DNA of 11,432 bases from a plasmid. Under the pieces are notes generated by a model. That model saw nothing but the letters and a program-made list of their open reading frames with translations, searched no databases and was not told where the DNA came from. The stretch lies in sequence record NZ_CP060116.1; one strand, given 5' to 3'. Of the stretch, positions 510 to 10,017 are shown in pieces. How positions within the stretch are numbered: position 1 is the stretch's first letter; each line of letters opens with the position of its first letter. Made by a program: the position numbers and the translations under genes.

Positions 510-540
510 GGTAGCTTTTCAATCCTTGCTACCTTTTTTA
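510..540 (+). terminator. Rho-independent terminator (ggtagc / gctacc, then TTTTTT).
   Basis: 6-bp GC-containing stem, 12-nt loop, T-run at 534-539. It closes a roughly 110-nt region (400-510) that contains no ORF, which may be a small RNA. Confidence 0.4.
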
Positions 541-1036
541 TTGTCCGTGGAGAGTAGGGACTAGGTGTTTTATGTAGTCCCTTATGTAGTCCCTTTTTTT
601 TTCTTTTGTATACCAATATATTTTTAATACTTTTTTTTATTCAGGGACTAAAAGGACTACTTTTTTAATTGCTTTCATTATATATTATTTTTAGTATTTT
701 TCTTATATATACCAATACTTCTATTATTACTTTGAATTTCAAAGTATATTTTTTTTTCTTTATTTTCAATACTTTTTTAGTTTTTTATATGTGTTTTTTT
801 TTATATATATAGATTTTCTAGTCCCACCAGTCCCTAATAAAAAAAAAACTTTTAATTGCAATGGAAAAAGTAGGGACTAGGTATAGGGACTAGGTAGGGA
901 CTGTATCTTTTTTGACTTCAAAAAAATATATATTAGAATTATGATATTATCAATAGTATAAATCGTTTTTTAATTAGGGACTGTTTTAAAATCGGAAAAA
1001 ATAATTTTCCTCTTTCTTTTACTTCTCCACGGACAC
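541..1036. repeat. Iteron-like repeat field and probable replication origin. About 11 copies of core GGGACTA (TAGGGACTAGG, TATGTAGTCCC x2, AGGGACTAA, GGACTAC and others) in both orientations. It also contains an AT-rich ACCAATA-repeat stretch. The field is bounded by the inverted repeat TCTCCACGGACA (541-552 on the minus strand, 1024-1035 on the plus strand).
   Basis: Direct reading: plus-strand copies at about 557, 645, 873, 887, 899, 977; reverse-complement copies at about 577, 588, 820, 830. Located immediately upstream of the rep operon. Confidence 0.6.
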
Positions 1037-1099: not shown

Positions 1100-1128
1100 T
1101 TGAAATAATAGACTATATATGTTAAAAT
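1100..1128 (+). promoter_or_regulatory. Candidate promoter for the HTH-helicase-primase operon.
   Basis: TTGAAA, 17 nt, then TGtTAAAAT (extended -10-like), about 35 nt upstream of ATG 1161. Confidence 0.3.
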
Positions 1129-1625: not shown

Positions 1626-3515
1626 ATGAAAAAAATAAAACCATTCCCAAAGTATGAAACACTAGAAAAAGATTTTCCACTTTCTATCAAAACTAAAACT
1701 ACTGTTAAATGGAACAATTTATCGCCATCTAACATCGCTAGATATATAATAAATGCAAAATTGGTAGGCAAGTACATCTATAAAGATTATGCAGAAAAAA
1801 ACGGAGAAGTCTATGAAACAAACAAAGGTATGTTAAAAATTTTTAATGAAGAATATGGTATATTTGTAAATGCAGATAATGTATTAAAAAAAATGATTTT
1901 TGAATTTTTTGAAGATGATGAAACTAAGCAAATTCAGAATTGTTGTAAATTCAGGTATACCAAAAATCCCGATGAAATCATAAAGAAGTTATTACTTCCA
2001 AGCCTGAAATATGAAATTAATAGGGTTTTAGAAAAATTGCATAACCACTGGAACGCAGGATTTGAGAAAGGATTTTTAAGTATTGTTTTTAAAAATGGTA
2101 CTCTATTGATGAATGTAAAAGAGAAAAAATGGCACTTTACAGAAGAAAAAAGTCCACAATTTTTGGCACAAGTTTATTTTAATACAAATTTTTTTCCACT
2201 TATAGCAGAAAAAAGGGAAAATAGACTATTTAATTTTTTAAATTTTAAGCTAGATTTACAAACAAAAGAAAAGCAAGATTTTATCAAAGCCTTGCTATTC
2301 GATTGGTTTTTCATAGAAAATAAAAGTCACCACATAATTTGCTTTGTTGGACGCCATAGCAGTGGAAAAAGTAGTTTTATGGAACATATAAAAACTTTTA
2401 GTAACTTTCATTCTTGGTGCAACAATATAAGTCTTAGCAGTTTGGTAGGGAACAAGTTTTCTGTCCCTGATTGGTTTTACTCGAATAATATATTCTGTAA
2501 TGAAACTAGCGAAAAATACTTCAAAGATAACAGTACATTTAAACTTCTAGTTGCAAAAGAAGTCTTAAGCGTGGAGCAAAAAGGCTTAGATATAGTATTT
2601 TTGAGAGCATTTAGCAAACTTATTTGCTTGGGAGAAGAGCCAATAAAGATAAAATCGGACGGGGGAGTTGACAAAAGAATAATGAACTTCCATTTCTCAG
2701 AGCAACAGTATCTTTTTTCAGAGCGAGAAAGATATGATTATAAAGATTACTTAGAACAAATACAGGAAGAAGATGAAACAGGAAACGACGCATTATTGCA
2801 ATATCTAGCATTCGGAAAATATGAAGACATTACACAAATTTTAATAGAGGGTTTTGAAGAATTTTGCAATAAAAAATACAATGATAACAAAAGAAAATTT
2901 AAAAGTAAATACGAAGAATTATTTGGAGAAGATATGGAAGTATTCGCAAGAATACAAAGTCCATACATCAATGGATATGAAACTTTTTTAGAGGCTTGTC
3001 CAAATTGTTGTGTGCAACTAACAACTTTTTTAAACATCTTAAAAGAATTAGAAGTTGAACAATATATTTCATCAACTGATACTTTAAGGGAGCATATAAA
3101 GAAAATAGATGAAACAATAAGAGATTATAAAAATGTTTATAGAGAATACTATTCTAAAACAAAAAATGTTAAAGTAGCAGTAGAAGAGCGAGGAAATGAA
3201 GATTTTTACACAACTTTGGCAAAAAAGAATAACTACATCTTTGGATTTAGGCTAAGAGAAAAAAAAGAAATTTATGATTTATTATTACAAAAAGTTAAAG
3301 ATACAGAAAAAGTTATTGCAACATATAACAGAATAAGAAGTTGCTTTAAAACTCTAACTGAAGAAAGTTTTAATAATTTGTTTCCACTTGCAACAGTAAC
3401 TAAAATAGAAGTTGCAGAACAACAAACAATAGATTTAGGTACTCCCCACGGACAAAAAGAAAAAACTATTGATGAAATGGAAGAAGAATTAAAAAATTTT
3501 TTTAAGGCAGAGTGA
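1626..3515 (+). CDS. Replication initiator/helicase with a P-loop NTPase fold showing D5/P4-type (SF3) helicase motifs. About 630 aa from ATG 1626. The track ORF starting at 1422 has no RBS.
   Basis: RBS AAAAAGGAGAG 8 nt before ATG 1626. Walker A FVGRHSSGKSSF. Downstream LVAKEVLSVEQKG, FSKLICLGEEPIKI and DGGVDKRIMNFHF resemble the conserved K-L-t-g-g-D, N-x-x-P and RR-finger blocks of the P4-family primase C-terminal helicase domain (compared from memory of that domain's consensus, not searched). Family assignment confidence is lower than the confidence that this is a CDS. Confidence 0.6.
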   Translation: MKKIKPFPKYETLEKDFPLSIKTKTTVKWNNLSPSNIARYIINAKLVGKYIYKDYAEKNGEVYETNKGMLKIFNEEYGIFVNADNVLKKMIFEFFEDDETKQIQNCCKFRYTKNPDEIIKKLLLPSLKYEINRVLEKLHNHWNAGFEKGFLSIVFKNGTLLMNVKEKKWHFTEEKSPQFLAQVYFNTNFFPLIAEKRENRLFNFLNFKLDLQTKEKQDFIKALLFDWFFIENKSHHIICFVGRHSSGKSSFMEHIKTFSNFHSWCNNISLSSLVGNKFSVPDWFYSNNIFCNETSEKYFKDNSTFKLLVAKEVLSVEQKGLDIVFLRAFSKLICLGEEPIKIKSDGGVDKRIMNFHFSEQQYLFSERERYDYKDYLEQIQEEDETGNDALLQYLAFGKYEDITQILIEGFEEFCNKKYNDNKRKFKSKYEELFGEDMEVFARIQSPYINGYETFLEACPNCCVQLTTFLNILKELEVEQYISSTDTLREHIKKIDETIRDYKNVYREYYSKTKNVKVAVEERGNEDFYTTLAKKNNYIFGFRLREKKEIYDLLLQKVKDTEKVIATYNRIRSCFKTLTEESFNNLFPLATVTKIEVAEQQTIDLGTPHGQKEKTIDEMEEELKNFFKAE

Positions 3516-4564
3516 TAAAAATGTCTAATATAAAATCATTAGCCTTTAAAGATAAGCTAGAAAAAATACATAGTTTAGAATATAAAATTTTAAGTTATTA
3601 TGGAGTGGACTTAGACAATTTCTATTGTCCACACTGTAATTCAAAAAGAATGAAACCTTTTAAGAGCAACAAGGGAGAATATCACAAGCTAAAATGTTAT
3701 GGTTGCAGTAGCACCCTTGATATCTTAGACATAGCAAAATTAATGGATAGTAACTTAAAAAATTTTAATCCAGGTGCAGTGGTAGACTATTTATTAAGTT
3801 TAGATTATAGTAATATAGAAAGTGCTTCACAAGTGGAACAAATAAAAAAATCAAAATCGGATCCGTTTTTAATAGATTATGATGAGTTCATAGCAAATAG
3901 TTTAAATAAATTTAATCGTGCAGTAGATACTAAGAATGCAGATGAATTAGAGTACCTTTATAGCAGGGGATATAATAATGAAGATTTAATCTATTTAAAA
4001 AATTTTCTAGGAATAGATGAACATAATAATATTATGTTTGCTTGTAGCAGAGAAAGTTTTATACTTAGACTGTTGAAACCTTGGCACGATAAAAATGGTA
4101 AGGAAATTAGATATAAAAACTCTCCTAGATTAGAAAATACAAGACATTATTGTTACCTGTTAGATACTGTAAATCAAAATAATATTATAAAAAATAACTA
4201 TAATATTTTCATCTTTGAGGGAGGATTTGACACTATAACATTTAGAATTTTATGTAAAAATAAATGCTTATGCTTCGCAACGGGGGGAGCAGATAGCAAC
4301 CATAATTTAATAGCAAATAAGATAAATGATATAGCAGGTAGATTAAATTATAAAGTTAATGTATTCATCTTATTTGATAACGATGAAGCAGGAGAAAATA
4401 ACACAACTTTACTTGCAGAATTATTTAATAAAAACTATATAAATGTATATACTAAAATGTCAAAATTCTTATTCAAAAACAGTAAAGATATAAGCGAAGA
4501 ATTTAAAAATAATCGTGCAGAGTTAGAAATAAGAATAAAATATTTATTAAATAAAATAAGTTAA
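3512..4564 (+). CDS. DnaG-like DNA primase with an N-terminal zinc-binding domain and a TOPRIM domain. The start is GTG 3512, overlapping the upstream stop, or ATG 3521.
   Basis: Zinc finger CPHCNSKRMKPF...YHKLKCYGCSSTLDILD (compare DnaG CPFH..EKTPSF...YHCFGCG). TOPRIM E-G-x-x-D in IFIFEGGFDTITF and D-x-D-x-x-G in FILFDNDEAGEN. Translationally coupled to the helicase gene. Confidence 0.8.
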   Translation: MIKMSNIKSLAFKDKLEKIHSLEYKILSYYGVDLDNFYCPHCNSKRMKPFKSNKGEYHKLKCYGCSSTLDILDIAKLMDSNLKNFNPGAVVDYLLSLDYSNIESASQVEQIKKSKSDPFLIDYDEFIANSLNKFNRAVDTKNADELEYLYSRGYNNEDLIYLKNFLGIDEHNNIMFACSRESFILRLLKPWHDKNGKEIRYKNSPRLENTRHYCYLLDTVNQNNIIKNNYNIFIFEGGFDTITFRILCKNKCLCFATGGADSNHNLIANKINDIAGRLNYKVNVFILFDNDEAGENNTTLLAELFNKNYINVYTKMSKFLFKNSKDISEEFKNNRAELEIRIKYLLNKIS

Positions 4565-4620: not shown

Positions 4621-5061
4621 TCAGGCGTTCGTTTTTTCTTCTGTTTTTTCTTCTTCATCAACTTTCTTTTCTTCTTTTATTTCTTTACTTTTATTTTTTA
4701 TATCTTCAAAAGAATTTTTTATTTTTTCTTCAATTTCTTCAAGGAACAGTTTCGCATTTTCTACACTAAGTTTATTCACAGATACATTAATTAATTTTAC
4801 AATTTCTTCAATTTTCAAATCATTTTCGGCTACCTTGGTGAACTTTAAAATCTGAGCAGGAGTTAAGCCAAAGTCCTTATAACTTTTCTTTTTAGCCTTA
4901 TTTTTAGCTTCATTTTTCTTCTCCACGGACTTATTCTTTTCTTCAATAATTTTCTTATAAGCTTCAGTCTTACTATAATTTTCTTGGTCAGGAATATTTA
5001 TTTTTTCTTCTGTATTTTCTTCAACATTTATATTTTTATTTTCTTCAAATTCATTATACAT
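4621..5061 (-). CDS. K/E-rich hypothetical protein (146 aa), probably coiled-coil. Function unknown.
   Basis: RBS AAGGAG 10 nt upstream of ATG on the minus strand. Own promoter, and convergent on the shared terminator. Shares the identical 20-nt stretch AATAAGTCCGTGGAGAAGAA (NKSVEKK) with the relaxase gene. Confidence 0.55.
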   Translation of the reverse strand: MYNEFEENKNINVEENTEEKINIPDQENYSKTEAYKKIIEEKNKSVEKKNEAKNKAKKKSYKDFGLTPAQILKFTKVAENDLKIEEIVKLINVSVNKLSVENAKLFLEEIEEKIKNSFEDIKNKSKEIKEEKKVDEEEKTEEKTNA

Positions 5062-5914: not shown

Positions 5915-7315
5915 ATGCCAATTTTAAAAGCAATAGGAAAAAACAAAGATAAAAAGAAAGGAAGTACCAAGCAAACATTAGCAGGAATGAAAGCAGTATT
6001 AAATTACATAGCAAGAGCAGGGAAAGAAGAACAAATTTATAAAGCTTTTGGAATGGGATTAAGCGATAATGTAGATAAGGCTAATAACACAATAATTTTT
6101 AATAAAAAGACGCACGATAAAGTGGATAGTAACTTATATAAACATTTTGCTTTATCGTTCCCCCCGGGATTTGATAATCTTGAACTAATAGAGAAGATTA
6201 CAAGAGAATTTGTACAAAAAGAATATGTAGATAAAGGCTTTTTGTGTTATGTGGGGATACATATAGATAAAGACCATTACCATAGCCATATTTTAGTTGA
6301 TACAGTGAATTTTAATACAGGTTATAAGCTACATCAATTAGATAATGCAGATATGAAGAAAGCAAGATATAAAGACAAAATTCTTCCTGAACAAGAAATA
6401 TCACTTGAACATTTAAAGGATAGTATGGAAGAAATAGCAATGTCTTATGGAGTAGAAAGCCCTGAGCGAAAAAAGGAAAAGAACAAGAGTATAAACATAG
6501 GAAAAATGGCTAAGTATAAAGGAATAACAAAAGAGAATTCGTGGCGAACTAAGATAGCAAAAAATTTTGAAGATATTGTTTTAAATCTTAATACGACAAT
6601 AGAAAATTTGCAGGATAAGTTAAAAGAAAAAGGTATCTTCTTTAATCGTTTTAATAAAGAAAAAAGAACTCTAACACTAGGTACAATGTACGAGGATAAG
6701 GGGAAGACTAAAAAAGGGTTAGTAAAACTTAGTACACTAGAAGCAGAAGAAGATTATAGATTTCAAGCAACTAAAAATATTTATAATTGGGATAATTTAT
6801 GGAAAGAACTAGACAAGCACAATGTTAAATTATTGGAGCAGGAGAAAGAAAAAAATAACGAAATTAATTTAGAATTAGATTTAGATATTTTTGATGAAAT
6901 AGAAAAAGAAATTAAATTAGAATTAGAAAAAGAAAAGGAACTAACTAAGTCTAAGACAAAGACAAAGACAAAGACATATACTATTGAAGAAGAAAGACAA
7001 ATTGATGAAAATACAAGAATATGGATTGAAAATTACAATAAAAAGCAGGAAATAGAAAAAGAAAATAATAAGTCCGTGGAGAAGAAAGAAGAAAAGCCAA
7101 AAGTTGTTGAGTTAAATGCTATTGAAAAAGCCAAAATAAGCCAACAATTAGCAGAAGAACAAAGATTAAAAGAATTAGAAGCAGAAAAATTAGCAAAGAA
7201 GAAGAAAGCGACTGTAACTGAATGGGTTGATGAGAAAGACCAGTGGGTAGACGAGAAAGATGAGTGGGTTAGTGAGTGGGAAGATGATAAAAATGATTGG
7301 GATTTAAGTAAATAA
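5915..7315 (+). CDS. Mobilization relaxase, MOBP-like (relaxase/mobilisation nuclease domain), with a long K/E-rich low-complexity C-terminal tail.
   Basis: RBS GGGGG. N-terminal motif I with candidate catalytic Tyr in KAVLNYIAR (compare RP4 TraI ELVKYITD). Histidine-triad motif III HIDKDHYHSHILVDTVN (HxDxDHxHxHxxxN). Confidence 0.85.
   Translation: MPILKAIGKNKDKKKGSTKQTLAGMKAVLNYIARAGKEEQIYKAFGMGLSDNVDKANNTIIFNKKTHDKVDSNLYKHFALSFPPGFDNLELIEKITREFVQKEYVDKGFLCYVGIHIDKDHYHSHILVDTVNFNTGYKLHQLDNADMKKARYKDKILPEQEISLEHLKDSMEEIAMSYGVESPERKKEKNKSINIGKMAKYKGITKENSWRTKIAKNFEDIVLNLNTTIENLQDKLKEKGIFFNRFNKEKRTLTLGTMYEDKGKTKKGLVKLSTLEAEEDYRFQATKNIYNWDNLWKELDKHNVKLLEQEKEKNNEINLELDLDIFDEIEKEIKLELEKEKELTKSKTKTKTKTYTIEEERQIDENTRIWIENYNKKQEIEKENNKSVEKKEEKPKVVELNAIEKAKISQQLAEEQRLKELEAEKLAKKKKATVTEWVDEKDQWVDEKDEWVSEWEDDKNDWDLSK
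6953..6976 (+). repeat. Perfect tandem hexanucleotide repeat (AAGACA)x4 inside the relaxase gene, encoding (KT)4.
   Basis: Read directly. In-frame unit, so slippage would change length but not frame. Confidence 0.8.
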
Positions 7316-8598: not shown

Positions 8599-8627
8599 AG
8601 GCACAATTAAGGTTGTGTCTTTTTTTA
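8599..8627 (+). terminator. Rho-independent terminator of the mob operon.
   Basis: aggcacaa / ttgtgtct stem (one G-U pair), 6-nt loop, T7 run. Confidence 0.6.
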
Positions 8628-8790
8628 CTTAAGGGGAACACCCCTTAACAACCCCCTATTATGCGTCATTATCCCCAGTCCCCCAACGAGCAGGGGAACT
8701 CTTGGGGACACTCGGCGTTGCTAGTTCTTATAGAACACCACTTATGAGCCACCCTTGTTACTTCCTATACAGTCCGTGGGGAAATACTCA
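8628..8790. other. GC-rich structured island in an otherwise AT-rich intergenic region. Candidate ncRNA, single-strand initiation site or recombination/attachment site.
   Basis: Perfect hairpin TTAAGGGG aaca CCCCTTAA at 8629-8648. Multiple C4-5/G4-5 runs (ccccag, tccccc, agggga, tgggga) that could pair. Ends with a fifth copy of the CCACGGAC motif at 8772-8779 on the minus strand. Confidence 0.3.
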
Positions 8791-9166
8791 ATAATTCAGT
8801 TATTAACTTCTTATTTGTAGTATATTAATTATTCATTTTTATTTTATTTTGATATACTAATATTTAAAAATACTTAATTATACAATATCAATACATTTTT
8901 ATTAATATCAATTACTATTTAAGTTCAGTATATAGAATTTATTTTATATTGATATTAAATAATATTTTTTATAGTATACTATAACTATATCTATAACATA
9001 TCATCATAATTTGAGTTCTATTATAGTATTTTATGTATTTAAAAATATTATATTGATTTTAAAATAATTTAAAATTAAAAATTTATTTCAATTTTTGCTA
9101 GAATACCGATTTTACCTTATATTCAATCTTATAGTGTATATATAGTTTATATATAATATATCAGTG

Positions 9167-9182
9167 ATATAGTTATAATATA
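9167..9182 (+). repeat. 16-bp direct repeat ATATAGTTATAATATA, copy 1, inside a TATAGT-rich AT tract.
   Basis: Identical to 10039-10054. Region 9130-9230 carries at least 7 TATAGT(G/T) units. Confidence 0.6.
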
Positions 9183-9256
9183 GTTATATTATAGTGCATT
9201 ATTGATAGTATATATAGTTACAATATAATATTGTTTCTTCCATTTTTTTAATTAAG

Positions 9257-9265
9257 TGGTATAAT
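9257..9265 (+). promoter_or_regulatory. Perfect extended -10 element TGgTATAAT. Candidate promoter of the RHH-protein gene. An alternative TTGACA, 17 nt, ATAAAT lies at 9311-9339.
   Basis: Read directly. Tandem CACTGAT repeats lie just downstream of the predicted start site. Confidence 0.3.
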
Positions 9266-9275
9266 ATAGACATAG

Positions 9276-9307
9276 CACTGATGAACACTGATACAAGATA
9301 CACTATA
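9276..9307 (+). promoter_or_regulatory. Candidate operator. Direct repeats CACTGAT (9276, 9286) and CACTATA (9301), the first two spaced exactly 10 bp apart.
   Basis: aCACTGATgaaCACTGATacaagataCACTATAaaa. Direct repeats on one helical face are typical of RHH repressor operators. Confidence 0.35.
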
Positions 9308-9417: not shown

Positions 9418-10017
9418 ATGAGCGTACATCGTTTGACGCAGGAAAAAATTGACAGTATTAAAAAGAAAATTCAAGACAAAATTGATTTAAAAGAGATTAT
9501 AATTGCACATTTTGGGAATAGCAAACACAGGTTTGATGAATGGTTGAGTAAAAACAGTTCTCATTTTACTGGTGCAGAATTAGATTATTTAAACTTTGTA
9601 ATTGTTATTGATAACAAGGCTTCAGGAGCAGGAGCAAAAGTAAAAGTAAAAGATGAAGAAATGGAAGTAATTCAAGATAAAAAAGAAATTGATATTGAAG
9701 AAAAAAACACTATCTTAACAGTAGCTGTTCCTAACTTAACACAAGTGGCACTAATGAGCAGAAAAGATAGAGAAAACTTCCTATTAAGTAATCAAGTAAT
9801 TGAAAAACTTGTAAATCTATTAAGTAATACAGATATAAAAGACACAAACATAGTAATAAGAGATGAAGCAAGAAACTTAAAAGATTTAAAAATACAGAAT
9901 ATAAGGATATCAGAGCAAATTTATAAAGATTTTGTAAACATCTGTAAAAAACACAACTTAACTATAACAAGTGTAATTAATAGTATGTTCTTAGATTTCA
10001 TCAGTCAACACAAATAA
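9418..10017 (+). CDS. Putative DNA-binding protein (199 aa) with a C-terminal ribbon-helix-helix-like fold. Candidate transcriptional or partition regulator.
   Basis: Strong RBS GGGAGG. C-terminus IRISEQIYKDFVNICKKHNLTITSVINSMFLDFI has a beta-strand/helix/loop/helix pattern like CopG/Arc/omega. Confidence 0.6.
   Translation: MSVHRLTQEKIDSIKKKIQDKIDLKEIIIAHFGNSKHRFDEWLSKNSSHFTGAELDYLNFVIVIDNKASGAGAKVKVKDEEMEVIQDKKEIDIEEKNTILTVAVPNLTQVALMSRKDRENFLLSNQVIEKLVNLLSNTDIKDTNIVIRDEARNLKDLKIQNIRISEQIYKDFVNICKKHNLTITSVINSMFLDFISQHK

Follow-up and report, generated by a model that had tools for sequence, protein, structure and literature searches.

In the present study, we analysed a stretch of plasmid DNA of 11,432 bp (sequence record NZ_CP060116.1; hereafter the window), which is a complete circular 11.4-kb Fusobacterium plasmid whose two ends abut in CP077121.1. 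The block at 542-1035, in which short repeats (iterons) and AT-rich DNA are enclosed by two inverted copies of a second sequence, is very probably the vegetative replication origin of this plasmid, as judged from the sequence. It lies upstream of an operon for a helix-turn-helix (HTH) protein, a DUF5906 protein and a zinc-ribbon/Toprim protein. By its repeats and by the predicted fold of the DUF5906 protein, the origin is of the type of the Staphylococcus aureus pathogenicity islands (SaPI) and P4, in which the helicase loads itself, and it adds a new member from Fusobacterium to this type. Of greater interest is the bracket, whose sequence is best explained as a conserved, polar, primase-linked signal of 13 nucleotides (nt), which would be a variation on the known principle of single-strand initiation (ssi) sites. 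Overall, an origin opened by a superfamily 3 (SF3) initiator-helicase and bracketed by primase signals is the explanation of the sequence that we favour, with moderate confidence.

The iteron field and its candidate initiator

Of the 12 copies of the hexamer GGGACT in the window, 10 lie in 557-982; 1.33 copies are expected in the shuffled window, and none of 200 shuffles reached 12. When one mismatch was allowed, 11 units of AGGGACTA (8 bp, or up to 11 bp with flanks) were found in 556-983, seven on the plus and four on the minus strand, with a spacing of 9-13 bp inside clusters. The earlier note on this DNA had counted about 11 repeats of the GGGACTA type, about six forward and four inverted, which agrees in number and is essentially right in orientation. 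The AT-rich ACCAATA stretch that it described is real: the central core at 660-818 has 13.8% GC and the spacer at 595-642 has 12.5%, and the conserved box A[TC]CAATA is present at 612, 711 and 949, together with TTCAATA at 765. Origins of this type have about an 11-fold excess of this box. The core is flanked by at least two iterons per side in opposite directions, I4 and I5 (+) on the left and I6 and I7 (-) on the right. An A-rich spacer of 36 bp separates I7 from I8, and the terminal forward triple recurs with other iteron sequences in L004, L006 and L009 (relatives of the plasmid are given L numbers throughout). The repeats, their layout and the relatives support the proposal of an initiator-binding origin with an AT-rich unwinding core.

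These repeats are not classical tandem iterons but units of 8 bp that point in both directions, as in the SaPI/P4-type origins described in the cited part of PMC9371898. A classical origin of the Rep_3/RepA type was rejected, as it would have units of 17-22 bp in tandem and in helical phase, and the plasmid has neither a Rep_3 gene nor a DnaA box (TTATCCACA within one mismatch, searched at 400-1160). A second iteron cluster near 8771, comparable to the crr of P4, was also rejected, because the lone GGGACT found there is kept even in plasmids with other iterons.

The relatives were collected by tblastn with the Toprim protein, which gave 18 PLSDB plasmids, and by a metagenome scan, which gave 61 loci with 21-88% identity. 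Five iteron sequences were found among them in one layout, consisting of inverted units, the A[TC]CAATA box, forward units, a long AT-rich gap, inverted units and a forward tandem: AGGGACTA in the window and L001, AGGGACTG in L006, GTGTACAC in L002 and L003, TATGGAGT in L004, L005 and L007, and ATGGACTG in L009, L013 and L015. The iteron core is almost confined to the bracket, with 6-13 copies within and 0-2 elsewhere in 11 plasmids. The iteron types co-vary one-to-one with the clades of the DUF5906 protein, independently of the HTH and Toprim clades. Plasmids with common iterons have DUF5906 proteins that are 97-99% identical (88-92% inside the ATGGACTG group), and proteins that are 42-49% identical go with different iterons. 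The DUF5906 protein of L006, 61% identical to that of the window, keeps the GGGACT core, and a metagenome protein of 75% identity keeps AGGGACTA exactly. A 1021-residue protein of L010, tried as a DUF5906-type control, was unrelated and had no Pfam match.

The natural chimera L005 carries TATGGAGT iterons and the cognate DUF5906 protein, but its HTH protein is 94-98% identical to that of the ATGGACTG plasmids. Because HTH and iteron types are mixed in this chimera, the HTH protein is excluded as the iteron specificity factor, and its binding to the iterons, as the earlier note had considered, becomes unlikely; this protein of 79 residues is probably a regulator of the operon. Furthermore, when the window was compared with L002 and L003, 98% identity stopped at 555, only 2 nt past the left signal copy, and 92% identity resumed at 3406, so that the exchanged unit comprises the iterons with the HTH and DUF5906 genes, and the Toprim gene stays.

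The DUF5906 protein matches its Pfam family with 33.9 bits against a cut-off of 27.6, as do nine of nine relatives, and it has an invariant Walker A motif (GxxxSGKS). The match to TIGR01613 (P4-family primase C-terminal domain) has E=2.7e-6 and is below the curated cut-off. An AlphaFold2 (AF2) model of this protein reached a predicted local distance difference test score (pLDDT) of 78 and a predicted template modelling score of 0.75. A Foldseek search with this model placed the African swine fever virus PrimPol at the top (E 1.5e-9), and SaPI5 PriRep and the poxvirus proteins (monkeypox virus E5, vaccinia D5) were at about 1e-8 (range 1e-9 to 1e-7). The co-variation and the predicted fold together indicate that the DUF5906 protein most likely reads the iterons, as the plasmid's own self-loading initiator.

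In L078 (4596-6080) and likewise in L079 (1290-2860), three tandem iteron fields stand upstream of one rep operon, namely a bracketed orphan field of TATGGAGT, an unbracketed field of TATCAAGGTA and the cognate bracketed field of AGGGACTA, which suggests accumulated origin cassettes or incompatibility decoys.

A polar signal that accompanies the Toprim gene

The iteron field is enclosed by an exact inverted repeat of 12 bp, TCTCCACGGACA, at 542-553 (-) and 1024-1035 (+); the earlier placing of the right arm was exact, and the left arm lies 1 nt to the right of 541-552. The core of this repeat, CCACGGAC, is found six times in the window (543-, 1027+, 3446+, 4923+, 7072- and 8772-) against a chance expectation of about 0.07-0.45, the upper value allowing one mismatch. 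Clockwise from the origin, the copies read +, +, +, -, -, -, and the switch is opposite the origin. The strand bearing the motif thus runs 5' to 3' off the origin on each arm, which makes it the lagging-strand template of a bidirectional fork. Three of the six copies fall in coding sequence, antisense to two of those genes, and the copy nearest to the Toprim gene is non-coding in L009, L013 and L015. The flank class conserved most widely is that of the copy at 8771-8782, and its 30 members are all on the minus strand.

With one representative for each of 70 flank classes, the consensus is YTYY-CCACGGAC-W (13 nt). The core is invariant by site selection, but positions -4 to -1 are 100% pyrimidine, and pyrimidines make up 70% of the 5' flank and 34% of the 3' flank. 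The signal was also written as TTCTCCACGGACA and as YTYYCCACGGACW. In single-strand folds, the motif was unpaired at six of six window sites. A hairpin requirement at these sites was rejected, as they have no common stem, and a GTCCGT...ACGGAC stem at the bracket sites is confined to the L004-L015 subgroup.

Three of these copies show further peculiarities. Those at 4920-4931 and 7071-7082 lie in unrelated genes and have about 35 nt of flank in common, both translating as NKSVEKK, as would result from the copying of a single short piece into each gene. In addition, the 8771-8782 copy is held by a GC-rich (about 36%), structured non-coding block at 8613-8790, which is conserved in Toprim plasmids of both main clades; next to it, 8800-9100 is the most AT-rich DNA of the plasmid (9-11% GC), with origin-like ATCAATA boxes. 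For the region 8613-9300, the roles of a terminus, a res site or a promoter are conceivable.

Among 66 related sequences (695 kb), 202 exact copies of CCACGGAC were counted, against about 0.75 by base-composition estimate. A divergent (-,+) pair of signals lies 2.4-3.5 kb upstream of the Toprim gene and is present in every related replicon with a recovered origin region. Wherever sequence is present 30-95 nt ahead of the Toprim match, it holds a site on the plus strand (56 plus, 0 minus); the sites about 1 kb past the gene were 8 plus and 0 minus, and those 3.5-6 kb downstream were 0 plus and 38 minus. The motif is found with different partner sets. Plasmids of the window type have HTH and DUF5906 proteins; L014 has Rep_3 and a DnaB-like helicase, and its divergent pair encloses only 107 bp of AT-rich DNA with three 22-bp iterons outside. 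In L054, L055, L057 and L067, which also have Rep_3 and DnaB-like proteins, there are two copies only, each a T-run followed by CCACGGAC and a hairpin; these are divergent and 3.3 kb apart, and the plus copy is directly 5' of the primase (Toprim) gene. The Toprim-less Fusobacterium plasmids pFN3, L010 and L011 (45 kb) have zero exact copies of CCACGGAC, although they have the recombinase family, the relaxase and further parts of the backbone in common with the motif-bearing plasmids. L022 and L029, which seemed to be exceptions with a Toprim gene and no bracket, were set aside as chimeric metagenome contigs that switch to DNA of 40-50% GC, and the small convergent open reading frame (ORF) was rejected as the reader of the motif because it has homologues in motif-less plasmids.

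These data bear on the earlier proposal in two ways. That the inverted repeat is the site of a second, distinct factor is supported. That it is a dedicated boundary of the origin ends is contradicted by the four additional copies round the plasmid, which are polar with respect to the origin and partly genic, and by the relatives, in which the bracket may hold the bare AT tract of L014 or 3.3 kb of iterons and rep genes.

The signal also changes with the Toprim clade. In the clade of about 35% identity (L058-L061, L066), the site is T8-CACGGAT-T with a perfect 14-bp hairpin, in two divergent copies about 3.4 kb apart, and L063 and L012 have the variant site TCACGGAC. L080 and L081, whose primase is 29% identical to that of the window (E 1e-21), have no CCACGGAC at all; they carry a 25-nt element, CAACTCCCCC with a CCCAGC/GCTGGG hairpin, twice and in divergent orientation, at the far edge of the iteron field (-) and 55 nt 5' of the primase gene (+). 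If enzyme and site co-evolve, one would expect just this, an unchanged geometry in which both the sequence and the primase clade differ.

Three observations in the relatives may be added. In L012, a 220-bp segment (173-392) with TCACGGAC and its hairpin is inverted relative to L055 and L063; this plasmid is without a DnaB-like gene and a primase-proximal site, adjoins a classical 22-bp-iteron Rep_3 origin and may be a decaying primase system. L080 has a second inverted pair of G/C-run elements (CCCCCCCACTCCCCCCCAGAAT) around its iteron field, at 15-35 and 9622-9645, distinct from the putative primase sites. The 47.9-kb metagenomic sequence BNJS01001424.1 (L039/L065) has two Toprim genes with a wide and a narrow bracket pair, and is either a multi-replicon cointegrate or an assembly artefact.

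Site-specific recombination or cassette exchange, by which origin-initiator cassettes and cargo would be swapped at CCACGGAC, is the alternative that survives best, and we regard it as unlikely. Several junctions do coincide with the motif: L002/L003 lose their homology to the window behind the left copy and regain it about 40 nt ahead of the one at 3443, the Toprim homology to distant plasmids begins at 3436-3454, and the chimera junction of L005 is at the right bracket. In addition, a cargo of a DMT-family transporter gene and one hypothetical gene is flanked by direct duplicates of the left bracket with a hairpin (L004 6189, 8261; L007 14415, 900), which hints that modules insert there, L078 and L079 have the extra bracketed orphan field, and every plasmid encodes a serine recombinase. 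However, the motif is asymmetric, with no dyad partner half-site or two inverted half-sites round a central dinucleotide. The recombinase was rejected as the reader, since the motif plasmids carry three types that are mutually 50-61% identical, and the recombinase of L058 is 98% identical to the L005 type in a plasmid without CCACGGAC within one mismatch. Recombination among six sites that face both ways would rearrange the plasmid, whereas the gene order is stable. The polarity of orientation and the fixed site 5' of the primase gene would be left unexplained, and breakpoints at the motif are equally expected if conserved islands merely anchor homologous recombination.

Rather less probable is a double-strand site for a second plasmid protein such as the HTH protein, which would mark the ends of the origin or repress the rep promoter. 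The right copy precedes the promoter-like site of the HTH operon by about 65 nt, the Toprim gene has a copy in front of it as well, and the HTH gene is adjacent; yet replicons with Rep_3 and DnaB-like proteins and no HTH gene keep the motif, and the core is invariant although HTH proteins of different groups diverge by about 40-50%. The position of copies inside three coding regions, in antisense to two, also speaks against it, and a lone asymmetric site whose flanks are strand-specific does not resemble a dimeric operator. We give an equally low probability to polar, Ter-like fork barriers, which would let forks leave the origin and stop returning forks, so that no rolling-circle over-replication occurs. 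Fork barriers near plasmid origins have been described, for example in R1 and R6K, and the polar orientation on both arms and the copies flanking the origin would suit them. However, only the Toprim gene tracks the motif, and no candidate terminator protein does; the strand-specific pyrimidine tract and the 3' hairpin of the two-site clades resemble single-strand signals, and a site fixed just upstream of the primase gene would have no explanation.

The Toprim protein that tracks the signal has an N-terminal CxxC...CxxC zinc ribbon, and its four Cys, EGxFD and DxD are invariant across clades. Primase profiles of the DnaG/T7 gp4 type align with its residues 26-337, which cover the zinc ribbon, the central domain and the Toprim domain, and we take its RYKNSP stretch to resemble the KYLNSPET motif of DnaG. 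A search of PDB sequences with the single Toprim sequence gave no match; a profile against the PDB gave weak matches only, and three of the top five were primases. If this protein were a site-specific nickase giving 3'-OH ends for strand-displacement synthesis, the same linkage of motif and Toprim gene would be expected; homologues are annotated by JGI as RNase M5, and sequence-specific Toprim nucleases exist, such as Gabija GajA. The alignment of all three domains, including the four-Cys ribbon, with primases and the lack of an OLD/GajA-type ATPase domain make a nickase very improbable. A host-level polar sequence, similar to Chi, the FtsK-orienting polar sequences (KOPS) or uptake signals, is the least probable alternative: its orientation bias with respect to replication resembles Chi and KOPS, but no exact copy of the motif stands in the 45 kb of other Fusobacterium plasmids of the same hosts, and the sequence changes with the primase clade.

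On balance, the sequence evidence inclines us to read the bracket motif as a primase signal, similar to the ssi of IncQ plasmids, for a DnaG-type primase. In the mechanism that we propose, hexamers of the DUF5906 protein would load on the inverted iteron clusters, and two of them, facing each other, would melt the 14%-GC core (660-818). The growing bubble would expose both bracket copies as single strands, each at the 3' end of its template strand. There, the Toprim primase (3521-4564) would recognise YTYY-CCACGGAC-W on single-stranded DNA and lay a primer, as RepB' does at ssiA and ssiB, and the bracket primers would be extended inward across the origin to become the leading strand of the opposite fork. 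The pair would always be divergent because a convergent pair would aim synthesis into DNA not yet unwound. SF3 helicases track 3' to 5' on the leading-strand template, according to the cited part of PMC9371898. Since an SF3 helicase leaves the motif strand free and a DnaB-like helicase extrudes the same strand behind it, both partner types fit the proposed model. The other four copies (3443+, 4920+, 7071- and 8771-), spaced 1.5-3.2 kb apart, could provide the plasmid with dedicated sites for lagging-strand priming during bidirectional theta replication. That the polarity is specific to each arm speaks for two forks converging opposite the origin, and against full strand displacement as in IncQ.

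A more elaborate form of this proposal is possible, and we put it forward only tentatively. Here, the zinc-ribbon/Toprim primase would need a template signal of 8-13 nt that is seeded on the lagging-strand templates of both arms, with two copies for the leading strands and the others every 1.5-3 kb as an Okazaki-priming code; the signal would co-evolve with the enzyme, from CCACGGAC through CACGGAT with a hairpin to CAACTCCCCC with a hairpin, and its islands would double as joints for the exchange of origin cassettes and cargo among Fusobacterium plasmids.

Several points weigh against a primase signal. The match of the Toprim protein to TIGR01391 (dnaG, 1.4e-7) reaches 30.7 bits against a curated cut-off of 283.6, that to the primase half of PHROG 239 (primase/helicase, 1.9e-5) is weak, and its AF2 model, from a shallow alignment, was unusable (pLDDT 59). 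Most primases are without specificity or read triplets, and the known sites of the DnaG/T7 type are trinucleotides (PMC8567376); a requirement for 8-13 nt would be unusual in this family. Many of the 202 sites are homologous by descent and only about eight extra sites are independent gains, so that, with a lineage that has a copy on the wrong arm, the polarity statistic alone gives only about p=0.04. This lineage has a plus CCACGGAC in the resolvase gene (L002 567, L017 9567, L019 11017), and no other class of sites departs from the polarity rule. L012 has its variant site in inverted and degenerate form and has lost both the helicase gene and the partner site. Furthermore, the window sites are without the hairpin found in the two-site clades and in IncQ ssi, and mosaic breakpoints and cargo insertions coincide with motif copies, which also fits a role in recombination.

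Gene order, other features and significance

The closest relative of the window is CP077121.1 (pKCOM1001B of F. nucleatum), with 93% identity over 89% of the window, and 24 of 24 PLSDB matches are Fusobacterium plasmids. The gene order is HTH, DUF5906, Toprim, a small minus-strand ORF, NikA-like and relaxase genes, a membrane protein, two hypothetical genes, a serine recombinase and an 83-residue ORF. The repeat field sits within a non-coding stretch of 1.17 kb, 5' of the HTH/DUF5906/Toprim operon, in which only HTH_29 (weak), DUF5906 and Toprim_2 were matched in Pfam and no gene for a winged-helix, Rep_3-type initiator was found. The coordinates are collected in Table 1. The terminator-like hairpin just outside the left bracket also appears in the single-strand fold of 503-593 and probably shields the origin against incoming transcription. 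An Rfam scan of the entire window gave nothing relevant, and full-text searches for the motif string and for this replicon family returned no relevant paper among those covered.

Table 1. Features of the origin, the signal copies and the replication operon in the window
Feature	Coordinates	Strand	Basis
Terminator-like hairpin GGTAGC-N12-GCTACC followed by T6, just outside left bracket	510..539	+	Sequence
Left signal copy, 5'-TCTCCACGGACA-3' on minus strand, pointing off origin	542..553	-	Exact match
Iteron I1, AGGGACTA	556..563	+	One-mismatch scan
Iterons I2 (575-582) and I3 (587-594), inverted pair 12 bp apart	575..594	-	One-mismatch scan
T-rich spacer, 48 bp, box ACCAATA at 612-618	595..642		Composition and box search
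Iterons I4 (643-650) and I5 (652-659, one mismatch), forward pair	643..659	+	One-mismatch scan
Central AT-rich core, 159 bp, boxes at 711-717 and about 765	660..818		Putative unwinding element
Iterons I6 (819-826) and I7 (828-835), inverted pair	819..835	-	One-mismatch scan
Iterons I8, I9 and I10 (872, 885, 896), tandem forward triple	872..903	+	One-mismatch scan
Iteron I11, AGGGACTG	976..983	+	One-mismatch scan
Right signal copy, 5'-TCTCCACGGACA-3' on plus strand, pointing off origin	1024..1035	+	Exact match
Promoter-like site TTGAAA-17-TAAAAT (with TG) of the HTH/DUF5906/Toprim operon	1100..1128	+	Consensus match only
HTH protein, 79 residues	1161..1400	+	Pfam HTH_29, weak match
DUF5906 protein, D5/P4/SaPI-Rep-like SF3 helicase (putative)	1626..3515	+	Pfam DUF5906, above threshold
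Signal copy TCCCCACGGACA, 5' of primase gene, in DUF5906 C-terminus (encodes PHGQ)	3443..3454	+	Exact core
Zinc-ribbon/Toprim protein, DnaG/T7-gp4-type primase (putative)	3521..4564	+	Pfam Toprim_2
Signal copy, right arm, inside minus-strand ORF of 146 residues (encodes KSVEKK)	4920..4931	+	Exact core
Signal copy, left arm, inside relaxase gene (encodes KSVEKK)	7071..7082	-	Exact core
Signal copy, left arm, conserved GC-rich non-coding block	8771..8782	-	Exact core

Apart from the origin, the segment 5-395 recurs with 96% identity, and unannotated, in pFN3 and in other Fusobacterium plasmids that have no Toprim gene. It has a strong ribosome-binding site (GGGGGTGAAG) and a hydrophobic ORF of 22-23 residues, (L)KKFFLLVLIVVIFLLLSKNAY, at 276/279-347, followed by a terminator at 356-385, and its minus strand has a perfect TTGACA-17-TATAAT promoter (219->191) and a terminator at 138-107. 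The peptide KKFFLLVLIVVIFLLLSKNAY is encoded in L012 too. This block looks like a type I toxin/antisense-RNA addiction cassette.

Fusobacterium nucleatum and its relatives are important in oral disease and colorectal cancer and are hard to manipulate, and the replicons in use or reported are only pFN1, pKH9 and pFN3 (bioRxiv 10.1101/2024.07.17.603877). Our analysis defines a second replicon family of Fusobacterium, abundant and present in oral metagenomes. At least five iteron/initiator specificities occur naturally in its origin cassette and are candidates for mutually compatible vectors, and the portable primase with its own signal is a second part that can be delimited. Sequence-specific priming of plasmids has so far been special to IncQ, where the primase is archaeo-eukaryotic. 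If the proposed reading is true, a DnaG-type primase with a long, dispersed and polar signal would extend the IncQ principle to the main bacterial primase family, and would provide a simple system to learn how zinc-binding domains read template sequence.

Comparison with known systems

Among the known systems, pFN3 comes from the same host and shares backbone modules with the window, and it also has repeats upstream of rep, beside AT-rich DNA (PMC1924603). It differs in its 18-bp tandem repeats at a spacing of about 22 bp, its Rep_3-type initiator, and the absence of a Toprim gene and of CCACGGAC.

The origin is closest to those of the SaPIs. In the cited part of PMC9371898, SaPI Reps are self-loading SF3 initiator-helicases accompanied by a separate or fused primase, and SaPI origins have 6-12 short iterons and an AT-rich centre with at least two iterons per side in opposite directions; the 11 units and the core of the window follow this layout. 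The predicted fold of the DUF5906 protein matches SaPI5 PriRep (7OLA/7OM0, E about 1e-8, template modelling score 0.55 on the target), and in the window type, as in SaPIs, the iteron sequence co-varies with the helicase. Unlike the SaPIs as described in that part, the window has units of 8 bp instead of 5-6 bp, an origin upstream of the operon instead of downstream of rep, and a bracket of strand-specific motifs, of which the cited part makes no mention. The A[TC]CAATA box and the zinc-ribbon/Toprim primase of DnaG type are further differences, and the sequence identity of SaPI Rep to the DUF5906 protein is only about 15%.

The origin of P4 consists of short octamer repeats in both orientations, and we know of no dispersed primase signal described for P4. 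The alpha protein of P4 combines a Toprim-type primase, a P4-family SF3 helicase and origin binding (PMC4234260), whereas in the window these functions are split over two genes and there is no second, crr-like iteron cluster. With T7 gp4 and DnaG, the Toprim protein shares a zinc-binding domain and a Toprim core, and recognition would likewise be on the lagging-strand template; their known sites are trinucleotides (PMC8567376), whereas the present signal has eight invariant bases and a pyrimidine prefix, about 13 nt in all.

For the bracket, the nearest system is that of the IncQ plasmids (RSF1010/R1162), which use the initiator RepC, the helicase RepA and the primase RepB', with ssiA and ssiB present once each on complementary strands (PMC8567376, PMC6925257, PMC4234260). 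The window differs from them in its DnaG/Toprim-type primase, as against the archaeo-eukaryotic RepB', and in its SF3-like initiator-helicase. It also has six dispersed polar copies instead of one ssiA and one ssiB, with no sequence similarity, and the hairpins of the IncQ sites of about 40 nt are missing at the window sites, whereas they are present in the L054, L058 and L080 clades. In common with IncQ, the plasmid has a primase of its own and two sites on complementary strands by iterons and an AT-rich tract. The likeness is greater in the relatives: L014, L054 and L058 carry the set of an iteron-binding Rep, a DnaB-like helicase and a primase, and in the two-site clades each site has a short conserved motif on its 5' side and then a hairpin, an arrangement shared with ssiA (PMC8567376).

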